Source: a virus (lineage: Duplodnaviria; Heunggongvirae; Uroviricota; Caudoviricetes). Taken from it: a stretch of 55,409 nucleotides of DNA. Position numbers and translations under genes: made by a program. Numbering within the stretch: position 1 is the first letter of the stretch; every line of letters starts with the position of its first letter. Below are positions 12,314-33,482 of this stretch, one piece after another. The stretch is from IMG/VR virus record IMGVR_UViG_2531839531_000009; one strand, 5' to 3'. A model generated the notes under the pieces. The model was given only the letters and a program-made list of their open reading frames with translations. It ran no database searches and had not been told where the DNA came from.

Positions 12314-12435
12314 GCAGGTGAATGCAACGTCAAGCGATGGGCGTTGCGCTCCATATTGTCTTACTTCCTTTTTTGAATTACTGCATAGCACAATTGATTC
12401 GTACGACGCCGACTTTGATGAGTCGGCTTTTTTTT
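12314..12435 (+). ncRNA. fnrS: FnrS small RNA
   Basis: gcaggtgaatgcaacgtcaagcgatgggcgttgcgctccatattgtc... ending in hairpin gacgccgactttgatgagtcggc plus T8 matches my recollection of E. coli FnrS; between zntB and dbpA as in K-12. Confidence 0.7.
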
Positions 12436-16736: not shown

Positions 16737-16937
16737 TCACGAGGACTGAAGTTTCTCGCAATTGAAATTAATCAGTTTTACTTTCTGCTCTCTGGAAACT
16801 CCTGCTTCTTTTTTACCTGAGAGCATTTTTTCGCATTCTGATTTCGTTAGTTTAGATTTTGAATATCTTGTCCAGTTAGTAGGAGTGCCACCTTCCTTTT
16901 CAATAGTGGCGGTAATTTTATACATGAACATCTCCAT
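16737..16937 (-). CDS. ydaC: YdaC-like small protein
   Basis: ORF between xis and ralR; start uncertain (ATGs at 16937, 16931, 16925) because the longest frame overlaps ralR. Confidence 0.45.
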   Translation of the reverse strand: MEMFMYKITATIEKEGGTPTNWTRYSKSKLTKSECEKMLSGKKEAGVSREQKVKLINFNCEKLQSS

Positions 16938-22287: not shown

Positions 22288-22695
22288 AATTATCTCCATT
22301 TTTACAAATGAATTTTGTCGATGCGGTGCCTGGTGCCTCCAGGTGACGTTAACCAGTTAACAATTAACGCCGGATAATCCACCCATAACACTGATGCTTT
22401 TAACTGCGCCGCGTGCGCTTAGCCGCATTCACCGCATCACAAAATTCACTTTAAAAAGGGGCGGCAGGGCAGCTACGGAGTAGAACTGATGCCGCCAAAA
22501 ACTAGACACAGCAATGTCGTTATTTACAACCGGAGGCGCACTCCCACCATTTAAATTTAACAGACAAGACCGACTCTTTATGGATACCGGAAATGCGCCT
22601 TCGTATTGTGCCCGGTTTTATTTCACCACCTCCGGGCTTTGGTGGCCTCGGCTATACCCCTACAGCAAGAATATTGAATTAATCCAATAAATGGT

Positions 22696-28333: not shown

Positions 28334-28638
28334 AGGCTATAAACCGACTAACAACTAAATACTGAAGATTTAAATCAGAAACGATTTTTATTAAATCCTT
28401 AACCGGAGGGATTCTGCACCCTCAGAACATCAGGAGGCCGACTGAAAGGGCGGAACAGATAATGCTTACGTTGAAACATTTTATCGACATACCAACATGG
28501 TTAGCCGTCATTGCTTTTGTTAAAATACACATCCACTTTTCTGTGCAATGTTTAACCACTGGTCATATCAAATGGCATTCATGCGAACCATGATATAGAA
28601 TCATGGCTTGAGAGAGTCGATGAAAGCGCAACTATGGT

Positions 28639-29211
28639 ATGAGAGACATTGATGTAAGAAAGGCTGTGCATGCCAAGATTCTGAGAGATCATCATAAAGA
28701 TCCTGACACCCTAATCATTGATGAGTTTACGATGAATCTAGGGGCTAGCAGAGCTGATATAGCAGTGATCAATGGGCTTATACATGGTTATGAGTTGAAG
28801 AGCAAGAGTGATAACTTGCTCAGATTACCAGCGCAGGTGCAACATTACTCATCAGTGATGGATAAAGTAACGTTGGTTGTCTCTGATTGCCATCTTTATG
28901 ATGCTTTAAGCATAGTTCCATCATGGTGGGGGATAAAGCAAGTTACGCAAGGTGCACGGCAAGGTATCCATTTAAAAACAATTCGAACTAGCAAGTTGAA
29001 TCCACAAGTGGACAAACTTTCCTTAACAATGCTTCTTTGGAAAGATGAATTGCTTTCCCTATTAAGTGATGTAGGGGAGCTACAGAATTTGAAAAATAAA
29101 CCTAAACGCGTCTTATGGTCAAAACTCGCCAATAGTATGGATGTTGGCGAGCTTCGTGAAGCTGTTCGAGTTAAACTTAAAGCCCGTAAAGAGTGGCGAG
29201 TTGCTCAATAA
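28639..29211 (+). CDS. PD-(D/E)xK nuclease-like protein (resembles proteins I recall annotated as sce7726 family)
   Basis: 190 aa; LIIDEF...RADIAVINGLIHGYELKSKSDN fits a PD-(D/E)xK D...D...E-x-K pattern; AT-rich coding sequence; 3' end overlaps the convergent partner by 35 bp. Confidence 0.6.
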   Translation: MRDIDVRKAVHAKILRDHHKDPDTLIIDEFTMNLGASRADIAVINGLIHGYELKSKSDNLLRLPAQVQHYSSVMDKVTLVVSDCHLYDALSIVPSWWGIKQVTQGARQGIHLKTIRTSKLNPQVDKLSLTMLLWKDELLSLLSDVGELQNLKNKPKRVLWSKLANSMDVGELREAVRVKLKARKEWRVAQ

Positions 29212-30274
29212 CCTTAGTTATGTGATGGTTTTGCCCAATCCTACGCCATACCTCTGGGCTACCAAATTTATAGTTACCAGAGGGATTGGCTTTGTAGGCT
29301 TGATACTCGTTTGCATAATATTCTATGTCTCTATCTCCCGCACAGAATGTAGGCCCTGAATATTCTCGATGAGCAAGAATATCCTCACTATGTTTACCAT
29401 ATTGTTCATAACCAAAGCGATTAGCTACTCTTCCTCGAAATACCCAAAAGTCATTATCTCCAGAGTATCTGACGCTGGCAGATACGCTAGGGAATCGCGT
29501 CGAAAGCCTATTAAAGTCGGGGTGCTGTACTCCATAATCACTATAAATCACATTTCTGGCAAGTTCTTTTCTATTCATTAAACTCTGCCATAAAATCCAC
29601 TCGATTCGAGGTTGAGAATATAGACCAACAGAAATATCACTGAGATCTGTAGGAAATGAACCCCCAGAAATAATCACTTTCCTGTATTCATTGAGGTGCG
29701 CCAGATTGTTTATCAATCCCATTGCCAAAGTATATAGTTCGCCGGAATTAAGTTTATCCTCGGTTAACTCATCTCTTAAGTCAATAATTATATCAAAATT
29801 TGATAAAGGAATTCCCAGATGATTAATGTAATGCGTTATTAATTGTGGGTTAACCAGATCTAACGTAGTTAATCTCAAGCATATTTCATTCTGCATTAAT
29901 TCATCAATCGCTCTTTTATAGTTAGATGGGCGAGTTGGTGAACTGACAGGAATAACTCTTATTCCCATATCTCTAACTTGATTAACCGCATTCATTATAG
30001 GGTAATGATCTTCAGGAGAAATAAAATGCTCTTCAATTAATAATCCATCAATATAAACACCTTGCATATCTGAGCAAGATTTTGAGACTTTCTTTCCGAA
30101 CTCTATAAGAGTCTCGTTATAACTCTTTAAGGCAATACCTGAATCAGGGTCAATTGGCACTGGTTCAATTTCGAGTAATGGCAAAATTTTTGATTTCTTT
30201 TCAATGGATAGCTGCGATAAAGCTGATAACTCAGAACGTTTCGCTTTCAGAATAGGAATATATGAAATTGTCAT
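29177..30274 (-). CDS. hypothetical 365-aa protein (resembles proteins I recall annotated as sce7725/beta family)
   Basis: Long AT-rich ORF convergent with the nuclease-like gene; no motif identifiable by eye. Confidence 0.6.
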   Translation of the reverse strand: MTISYIPILKAKRSELSALSQLSIEKKSKILPLLEIEPVPIDPDSGIALKSYNETLIEFGKKVSKSCSDMQGVYIDGLLIEEHFISPEDHYPIMNAVNQVRDMGIRVIPVSSPTRPSNYKRAIDELMQNEICLRLTTLDLVNPQLITHYINHLGIPLSNFDIIIDLRDELTEDKLNSGELYTLAMGLINNLAHLNEYRKVIISGGSFPTDLSDISVGLYSQPRIEWILWQSLMNRKELARNVIYSDYGVQHPDFNRLSTRFPSVSASVRYSGDNDFWVFRGRVANRFGYEQYGKHSEDILAHREYSGPTFCAGDRDIEYYANEYQAYKANPSGNYKFGSPEVWRRIGQNHHITKVIEQLATLYGL

Positions 30275-30830
30275 GTTAATACCTTATACAGAATCAATTA
30301 ACAATTAATGGTTCTTCGGACATTGAAATTTATATCGCAAAAATTGGCAAACTCTCCTCGACTACTCACTTGTGGGTATCCTGGCGTAAAAGGAATGACT
30401 TGGCAATACCCGGTGTGATCATAAGTCATTGAAAATGATCATTTTTATCAGCCTTTCTTCCATGATGAATGCTAATGCCATTTGATTTGTTGAGGTGAAA
30501 ACTATTAAAAATCAAAACGATGTAATTGAAATGAACGTTCGGTAGCATTCACGCTTTAAATGTTTCTTTTGTGCTGATTGGATGAATTTTGGTCACTTAT
30601 GATGAGAGATGTTGCAGGAAAAGAAGTTGGCATTGATCTATTGGATAGTTAGAATTGCTGCGGGTGCTTGAGGCTATCTGCCTCAGGCATGAACACCAAA
30701 AGGCAGATAGAGAAAAGCCCCAGTTAACATTACGCGTCCTGCAAGACGTTTAACATTAATCTGAGGCCATATCTATGCGACACATAGAGATTAGCCTCTT
30801 ACGGACCGAAAGGTCAAGGAGAAGCAGGCT

Positions 30831-30986
30831 ATGAAGCAGCAAAAGGCGATGCTAATCGCCCTGATCGTCATCTGTTTAACCGTCATAGTGACGGCACTGG
30901 TAACGAGGAAAGACCTCTGCGAGGTACGAATCCGAACCGGCCAGACGGAGGTCGCTGTCTTCACAGCTTACGAACCTGAGGAGTAA
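30831..30986 (+). CDS. hokD: Hok/Gef-family type I toxin (HokD/RelF-like, 51 aa)
   Basis: Unlisted short ORF: MKQQKAMLIALIVICLTVIVTALVTRKDLCEVRIRTGQTEVAVFTAYEPEE; preceded by a short overlapping mok-like frame and followed by hairpins. Confidence 0.75.
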   Translation: MKQQKAMLIALIVICLTVIVTALVTRKDLCEVRIRTGQTEVAVFTAYEPEE

Positions 30987-31055
30987 GAGACCAGGCGAGG
31001 GAGAAATCCCTCGCCACCTCTCATGTGTCAGGCATCCTCAACGCACCCGCACTAA

Positions 31056-31077
31056 ACCCGCTTCGGCGGGTTTTTTG
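31056..31077 (+). terminator. rho-independent terminator after hok
   Basis: CCCGC-TTCG-GCGGG hairpin followed by TTTTTTG. Confidence 0.5.
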
Positions 31078-33328: not shown

Positions 33329-33404
<76 letters not shown>

Positions 33405-33407
33405 TAT

Positions 33408-33482
<75 letters not shown>

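Follow-up and report, generated by a model that had tools for sequence, protein, structure and literature searches.

The closest described relatives of the gene pair analysed here belong to two defence systems. In satellite phage P4, gop (247-648) and beta (651-1718) are encoded on the plus strand and cII (1746-2540) on the minus strand; RefSeq names beta as a 'beta family' and cII as a 'sce7726 family' protein. The P4 gop-beta-cII locus confers protection from lambda and P1; in the absence of beta, Gop is toxic, and gop-beta has been described as toxin-antitoxin (TA)-like (PMC9122126). With gop-beta-cII, expression of phage orf184 results in cell death (bioRxiv 10.1101/2023.04.06.535777). PD-lambda-2, as published from E. 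coli ECOR42 by Vassallo et al. 2022, consists of three genes and includes no nuclease; a convergent cII gene is not mentioned (PMC9519451). Its component A is HigB-like, component B combines an Xre-HTH with an ImmA peptidase and is toxic alone, and component C is P4-beta-like (PMC9519451). [quoted passage not shown]

Here, we analyse a two-gene cassette in a 55,409-nt stretch of viral DNA (Caudoviricetes; IMG/VR record IMGVR_UViG_2531839531_000009), which in its full length is referred to as the window. The first gene, geneA (28639..29211, plus strand), encodes a 190-aa protein of the sce7726/phage P4 cII family with a predicted N-terminal PD-(D/E)xK core and a C-terminal helical domain. The second, geneB (29177..30274, minus strand), encodes a 365-aa protein of the P4 beta family, which is predicted to form a divergent TIM barrel. 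An earlier note, made from the letters of this DNA without database searches, knew of no established function for such a pair. That statement is outdated, as homologues of both geneA and geneB are part of P4 gop-beta-cII, a validated system, and beta also corresponds to component C of PD-lambda-2.

Results

A convergent, overlapping gene pair in AT-rich DNA

The ORF listing of the window contains exactly two ORFs at the cassette, geneA and geneB, which converge and share 35 bp at their 3' ends (29177..29211), where both strands are coding. Convergent transcription with an overlap of this length, as described in the earlier note, is thus confirmed by the ORF coordinates. The AT-richness that had been noticed there by eye is equally evident from base counts: GC content is 0.408 in geneA, 0.372 in geneB and 0.386 in the segment 28334-30830, as compared to 0.484 in the whole window and about 0.49-0.50 in the flanks. 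The segment has the second lowest GC content among 530 sliding windows of 2.5 kb. Both genes are coding sequences and not chance ORFs, as their family-model scores are far above the respective cutoffs. In comparisons with orthologues from two-gene loci, pN (0.19-0.28) was far below pS (0.70-0.87), indicative of purifying selection; given saturated dS, the comparison is expressed only in this form.

Cassette-specific AT-rich DNA extends over approximately 2.2 kb (28454..30649), as delineated by the ends of matches in other genomes and by the GC profile. With positions 28400-30700 as query, partial matches ended at query positions 1-54 and 2251-2301; in the coordinates of the window they end at about 28453 and resume at about 30650. 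The DNA beyond 28454-30649 recurs in numerous further lambdoid prophages as well as in Stx phages.

A scan of the region for promoters and terminators gave no signals above shuffled controls. A sigma-70-like site (ATGGCA-18-TAGAAT; 28572..28601, plus strand), located 38 bp 5' of the geneA start, might nevertheless serve as geneA promoter. For geneB, the promoter is expected in the AT-rich leader (30275..30649, minus strand), in which no site reached the threshold. A 16-nt motif (ATCAAATGGCATT core) is present 5' of both genes, at 28564-28579 for geneA and at 30474-30489, within the leader, for geneB. It was considered and rejected as a shared operator, because only near-identical E. coli copies of the cassette carry the motif and diverged orthologues are without it. 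The two mRNAs are expected to be mutually antisense, because no recognisable terminator precedes the point at which either of them enters the other gene.

A variable slot next to hokD in a Rac-type prophage

The prophage that carries the cassette is lambdoid and of the Rac type, with recE, kilR, RalA and DicF; the RalA and DicF RNAs are encoded in the window together with FnrS. In E. coli 214-4, which has a near-identical copy, recE, kilR, ydaT, replication genes, genes for DUF1627 and DUF977 proteins, and two small ORFs are followed by the sce7726 and beta genes and then by hokD, behind which lie DUF1367, DUF1364 and DUF1133 genes, tRNA-Thr, tRNA-Gly, and lysis genes. The cassette of the window is located just 5' of an intact hok/sok locus, with hokD at 30831-30986 and the sok region (Rfam RF01794, 108 bits) kept at 30662-30833. 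The earlier note had placed the pair between nin-like genes and hokD, which agrees with DUF977 and the small ORFs on one side and hokD on the other.

The prophage is not Qin, and homology of the window to Qin does not extend beyond 30817-31075 on the hokD side. In K-12 Qin, also a lambdoid prophage, relB-relE lie directly 5' of hokD and represent an alternative cargo at this position, encoding proteins unrelated to those of geneA and geneB. The suggestion that both cargoes share one slot therefore holds relative to hokD but not for the other flank, which is not homologous. In Qin, homology begins 14 bp before hokD and the sok region is replaced, whereas hok/sok is intact in the window.

That the slot adjoining hokD is swappable, as also proposed from the sequence, was substantiated by related prophages with the same flanks but other cargo, e.g., DUF551 genes or a gene for a 187-aa hypothetical protein, in addition to relBE in Qin. 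These alternative cargoes are not obviously defence genes. Among 5426 complete E. coli genomes, 93 (1.7%) contain the whole cassette at about 99% identity and with both ORFs undisrupted, and the copy in phage Rac-SA53 is interrupted by IS1. The geneA-geneB pair is an AT-rich accessory (moron-like) cassette in a variable prophage slot.

geneA is a predicted PD-(D/E)xK nuclease of the sce7726/P4 cII family

geneA matches the NCBIfam model sce7726_fam (NF033832) over model positions 1-184 of 184 with 191.1 bits (cutoff 70), the PADLOC 'cll' model at 2.4e-28, and phrog_984, and Pfam PF26915 (Phage_P4_cII) is present in all 120 listed geneA homologues. Alignment with P4 cII (hhalign) reached a probability of 98.7%, and the catalytic E/D/ExK residues are retained in P4 cII. 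Across 41 aligned homologues that share 46-81% identity with geneA, residues E29, D40, E52, and K54 do not vary. The AlphaFold2 model (pLDDT 94.8) has an alpha-beta-beta-beta-alpha-beta core, in which D40 maps to strand 2 and E52-x-K54 to strand 3, and ends in a helical domain at the C-terminus. Residue conservation and predicted structure thus uphold the PD-(D/E)xK-like motif that had been read in the first protein, and membership of geneA in the PD-(D/E)xK nuclease superfamily, as a predicted nuclease, is well supported.

The PD-(D/E)xK nucleases that come closest to geneA are 3dnx (SPO1766), Can2/Card1 effector domains, NucS, and type II restriction enzymes. A sequence search of the PDB with the profiles of both the geneA and the geneB family returned nothing significant. 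cII-like genes without beta are also found inside phage early operons (Mx4, L048).

geneB is a P4 beta-family protein

geneB matches Pfam Beta_protein (PF14350) over model positions 1-341 of 342 with 179.1 bits (cutoff 27; 2.2e-52), and alignment with P4 beta (hhalign) covered the full length with a probability of 97%. The PADLOC 'beta' model weakly matched the N-terminus only (9e-5). Conserved polar residues (K12, E35, D76, R115, R134, D165, D246, R269, H351) appear to be positioned at or just after predicted strands, as in TIM-barrel enzymes, a placement that was read from a secondary-structure map and not from a superposition. Fold searches returned generic TIM barrels only and no specific enzyme assignment. 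The beta family comprises 4311 clusters at 50% identity (E <= 1e-3); a literature search on PF14350, sce7725, and PF26915 found nothing mechanistic.

The earlier note had likened the pair to sce7726/sce7725. This stands for geneA (191 bits) and fails for geneB, which scored 12.3 bits against the NCBIfam sce7725 model (NF033831, cutoff 60) with only residues 5-39 aligned. The likeness to the NCBIfam pair is therefore limited to geneA. The sce7725 model was likewise matched by none of ten diverse beta-family partners of sce7726 genes.

Convergence and overlap phase are conserved across phyla

About 140 loci were gathered by searching viral contigs with the cII profile and one genome per species with the beta profile, and by individual look-ups; both genes were placed in each locus by HMMs and duplicates were then removed. 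Every locus with both genes has them in convergent orientation (83 of 83 distinct beta-cII pairs from at least 12 phyla). Carriers include Enterobacterales and Firmicutes, Actinobacteria with their phages, as well as Nitrospirae, Chloroflexi, Gemmatimonadota, Verrucomicrobia, Saccharibacteria, and a Methanosuratincola archaeon. Except for P4 and the L049/L113 pair, in which gaps of 27 and 14 bp, respectively, separate the two genes, they overlap, by 8-140 bp, in 81 of the 83 pairs. In 79 of these 81, the overlap length is 2 mod 3 (binomial test against one-third, 3e-35). Because indels and stop shifts in doubly coding DNA change the length by multiples of three, a fixed phase corresponds to a continuously kept ancestral overlap; judged from these sequence comparisons, it is the signature of an overlap maintained since the common ancestor. 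The overlap at 29177-29211 encodes conserved C-terminal motifs on opposite strands, LKxRxxWR in geneA and QLxxLxxL in geneB. Such a near-universal convergent, overlapping, and phase-locked layout is unusual for a two-component system.

Additional genes are found next to beta in some lineages only

In Enterobacterales and Firmicutes, no third gene abuts beta and the loci are two-gene forms. In eight loci of other phyla, a gene matching PD-Lambda-2_B (down to 4e-162) lies directly 5' of beta, and in six of these eight a HigB_toxin gene lies 5' of PD-Lambda-2_B. In a wider sample of about 39 loci, PD-Lambda-2_B was matched by 12 of 139 neighbouring proteins. Natural PD-lambda-2 operons are thus followed by a convergent, overlapping cII/sce7726 gene. 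HigB and Xre-ImmA pairs are also found without beta and cII and thus represent a separable module. In another class of loci, an uncharacterised gene of about 200 aa abuts beta. Integrases, resolvases, P4-type primases, and prophage genes are further neighbours of the pair, and known defence genes nearby include DarT-DarG with a DpnII-like gene, SIR2, GajB (in two loci), and BrxL. On sequence grounds, the two-gene form is a maintained state, with no third gene next to the pair in Enterobacterales and Firmicutes, pN far below pS, and intact copies in 93 of 5426 genomes.

We also looked for the additional components of the named systems at the cassette. In a blastp search with P4 Gop against all window ORFs and 90 loci, P4 alone was matched, and gop is absent from all of about 140 other loci. 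The ORFs 5' of geneB are only 40-43 aa long and unconserved, and PADLOC and Pfam scans of neighbouring ORFs revealed neither a HigB-like A nor an Xre-HTH plus ImmA/IrrE B component flanking the pair. Neither in the flanks nor in the 550-bp leader of geneB did we find a hidden gene of the gop-like or HigB/Xre-peptidase type. When plasmids were searched by tblastn for an E. coli relative of PD-lambda-2, the E. coli matches were limited to HigA-like HTH fragments, and no E. coli entry was among the PD-lambda-2-type beta proteins recovered with a profile. The PADLOC models of both named systems require components that are absent here; defence finders would miss the pair because current models require the accessory toxins. 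A type II toxin-antitoxin module was rejected as a classification of the cassette, as the genes are convergent and encode proteins of 190 and 365 aa that both have enzyme-type folds.

Discussion

In our analysis, the evidence speaks most strongly for a role of the pair in defence or abortive infection, and we infer that it most likely shields the lysogen from other phages. We assign a probability of roughly 55% to the proposal that the cassette is an ancient mobile module reduced to its two-gene minimum and functions as prophage-borne defence, in which the nuclease acts as effector and beta serves as regulator or sensor. In this minimal form, the nuclease would be the only recognisable effector. 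Beta is read as a regulator or sensor because it neutralises Gop in P4 and is needed for PD-lambda-2 defence, though not for toxin neutralisation. Briefly, beta would keep the effector silent until infection, whereupon the cII-like nuclease might be released and cut DNA, so that phage replication is blocked or the cell is killed (abortive infection). With the 3' end of each mRNA antisense to the other, expression of both genes could be coupled via transcriptional interference or RNA duplexes, and the antisense overlap may thereby couple the levels of the two mRNAs. Other elements would add toxin modules 5' of beta in the same operon, namely Gop in P4 and HigB plus the Xre-ImmA peptidase in PD-lambda-2.

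Several observations sit less easily with this explanation. The known toxins are Gop in P4 and component B in PD-lambda-2, and neither is cII. The enzyme-like conserved residues of beta make a purely regulatory role questionable. Phage early operons contain cII-like genes without beta, the components required by PADLOC are absent from the cassette, and its promoter and terminator signals stay within the range of shuffled controls. In addition, the validated PD-lambda-2 clone includes no more than 396 bp beyond gene C, which leaves no room for a complete convergent cII gene. Should ECOR42 carry such a gene, it would have been truncated in the clone and dispensable for PD-lambda-2 defence.

Among alternative explanations, a restriction-modification (R-M)-like logic comes first, although we regard it as unlikely. 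Beta could modify DNA or the nucleotide pool and thereby mark self, and the cII-like nuclease could cut unmodified (or modified) incoming DNA. Convergent genes for restriction and modification are a common layout of R-M systems. However, the DpdA/TGT scores of geneB fall inside the range of generic TIM barrels and no specific relative was found. R-M logic also leaves unexplained that P4 beta neutralises the membrane toxin Gop, and it is at odds with the action of PD-lambda-2 as abortive infection.

We give still less credence to an addiction or stabilisation function, i.e., TA-like post-segregational killing or prophage maintenance without a real anti-phage role. The location of the pair at the position of Qin relBE and adjoining hok/sok, its occurrence almost solely on mobile elements, the description of gop-beta as TA-like (PMC9122126), and an antisense overlap reminiscent of type I TA regulation would all be compatible with such a function. 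Yet related three-gene systems confer phage resistance, and the pair is also present in chromosomal defence islands beside DarTG, SIR2, Gabija, and BREX genes. Its proteins are moreover large and enzyme-like, and they are not encoded in a co-directional operon of the TA type.

The nin region of lambdoid phages is home to nucleases of the RusA/NinG type, and geneA could thus be a MmcB-like repair or recombination nuclease of this region that serves replication or recombination of the prophage, with beta as an auxiliary enzyme. This is improbable given the foreign base composition of the cassette, the location of beta on the strand opposite to the early operon, and the rarity of the cassette (93 of 5426 genomes) relative to its flanks, which occur in thousands. 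Furthermore, the same pair is found outside phages, in defence islands and in archaeal or CPR genomes, and is homologous to components of defence systems.

That the cassette is a decayed and now inactive remnant of a three- or four-gene system, from which gop or the HigB/Xre-peptidase genes were lost, is very improbable: the extra components of the named systems are indeed absent and the Rac-SA53 copy is broken by IS1, but 93 genomes contain nearly identical copies in which neither ORF is disrupted, two-gene loci are the norm in Enterobacterales and Firmicutes, pN remains far lower than pS, and all catalytic and conserved residues are kept.

Returning to the reading as a minimal defence module, it is tempting to go one step further and to propose, tentatively and with considerable doubt, that beta-cII is an ancient, self-sufficient immune core that was phase-locked tail-to-tail before its bacterial, CPR, and archaeal carriers diverged. 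Antisense coupling would be part of its switch, P4 gop-beta-cII and PD-lambda-2, which are currently listed as unrelated three-gene systems, would be elaborations of this core, and PD-lambda-2 would have the nuclease as a fourth component that has been overlooked. Irrespective of this proposal, the common two-gene core, which is very widely distributed across phyla, connects gop-beta-cII with PD-lambda-2, both of them catalogued defence systems, and provides PD-lambda-2 with a predicted nuclease partner that is absent from its published description. With about 2.2 kb, the cassette is a compact test object for the role of the enigmatic P4 beta protein, and its layout offers a direct handle on whether antisense coupling matters.

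Comparison with P4 gop-beta-cII and PD-lambda-2

The cassette resembles P4 gop-beta-cII (DefenseFinder Rst_gop_beta_cll) in that beta and cII are convergent, as are geneB and geneA, in that both proteins are homologous, and in that the genes are carried by a mobile element. It differs in that P4 beta and cII are separated by a 27-bp gap with a terminator whereas the cassette genes overlap, and in that P4 cII is longer than geneA (264 vs 190 aa) at low identity (about 24-28%). P4 gop encodes a 133-aa membrane protein that has no counterpart in the window. PD-lambda-2 is related to the cassette through geneB, which matches PD-Lambda-2_C (PDLC03983) over its full length (residues 4-362, 1.5e-41), and natural operons of the PD-lambda-2 type contain the same convergent, overlapping cII/sce7726 gene as the cassette. 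In contrast, the window has neither the HigB-like component A of PD-lambda-2 nor its toxic component B, which combines an Xre-HTH with an ImmA/IrrE peptidase. The cassette belongs to neither gop-beta-cII nor PD-lambda-2 and holds the part that is common to both.

Results

The predicted nuclease gene of the cassette, geneA, encodes 192 aa in most E. coli copies (the comparison locus L011 among those compared), ending in ...WRVAQQP and overlapping the convergent beta-family gene, geneB, by 41 bp, whereas in the window and a minority of E. coli copies it stops two codons earlier, at ...WRVAQ (window 29206-29211), with an overlap of 35 bp. This pair of overlaps illustrates how overlap length changes in steps of three. 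Both genes have two short motifs in identical order, either ahead of the coding sequence or at its beginning: ATCAAATGGCATT at 28564-28579 and 30474-30489, and AAGAAAGGCTG at 28652-28666 and 30449-30463. Both are absent from diverged orthologues and present only in near-identical E. coli copies; the pairs could represent a shared operator, a duplication remnant, or chance.

The right side of the cassette directly adjoins an intact hok/sok locus (30662-30986), composed of sok (30662-30833; Rfam RF01794, 108 bits) and the hokD open reading frame (30831-30986; PF01848). In the K-12 prophage Qin, by contrast, relBE takes the place of the sok region. At the cassette boundary, directed towards hok, is the top-scoring sigma-70-like site of the region (30627-30655, 10/12 matches). 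Just 3' of hokD, Rfam gives a sub-threshold match to the Hfq-binding sRNA IsrK (30995-31076; 31.3 bits at E 3.6e-4, gathering score 50). This match overlaps a GC-rich hairpin that resembles a terminator and precedes a run of T residues.

Other RNAs of the window, called by ARAGORN or by Rfam matches that exceed the gathering score, comprise the sRNA FnrS (12314-12431), probably located in the chromosomal flank, RalA (16741-16919), the antitoxin RNA of the Rac type I toxin-antitoxin system RalR/RalA, DicF on the minus strand (22459-22510), and a tRNA-Thr(UGU)/tRNA-Gly(UCC) pair (33329-33482) downstream of the Q-like gene.

Discussion

Genes of the sce7726/cII family are also found apart from beta. 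In Myxococcus phage Mx4 (p30; L005) and in L048, cII-like genes have no beta partner and are co-directional within phage early operons; phages therefore also use the nuclease family on its own. At other loci (L119, L126, L127, L128, L007/L008), an uncharacterised, roughly 200-aa gene without a Pfam match abuts the start of beta and may constitute a further accessory module of the beta-cII core. In L119, L127, and L128 it is preceded by an open reading frame of about 330-400 aa, which may be PD-Lambda-2_B-like, as 12 neighbours in the sample match the PD-Lambda-2_B model.

In NDM-1 plasmids, including A. baumannii pAC1633-1 (L146), an ImmA/IrrE peptidase gene adjoins the IS30-flanked blaNDM-1 region, and the map of this same region includes an sce7726 gene (bioRxiv 10.1101/2020.10.08.331108). 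The presence of both genes suggests that the resistance transposon of these plasmids inserted into a PD-lambda-2-type locus.

Six loci (L109, L110, L116, L118, L121, L124) combine HigB, PD-Lambda-2_B, and beta with a convergent cII gene. In L120 and L133, a protein of 155-171 aa occupies the HigB position; it probably corresponds to the DUF6932 (Pfam) match found among the neighbours. In Nitrospirae, Saccharibacteria, and other phyla, canonical PD-lambda-2-type operons have at their 3' end a convergent sce7726/cII nuclease gene that overlaps them and falls outside the three-gene definition published for PD-lambda-2.
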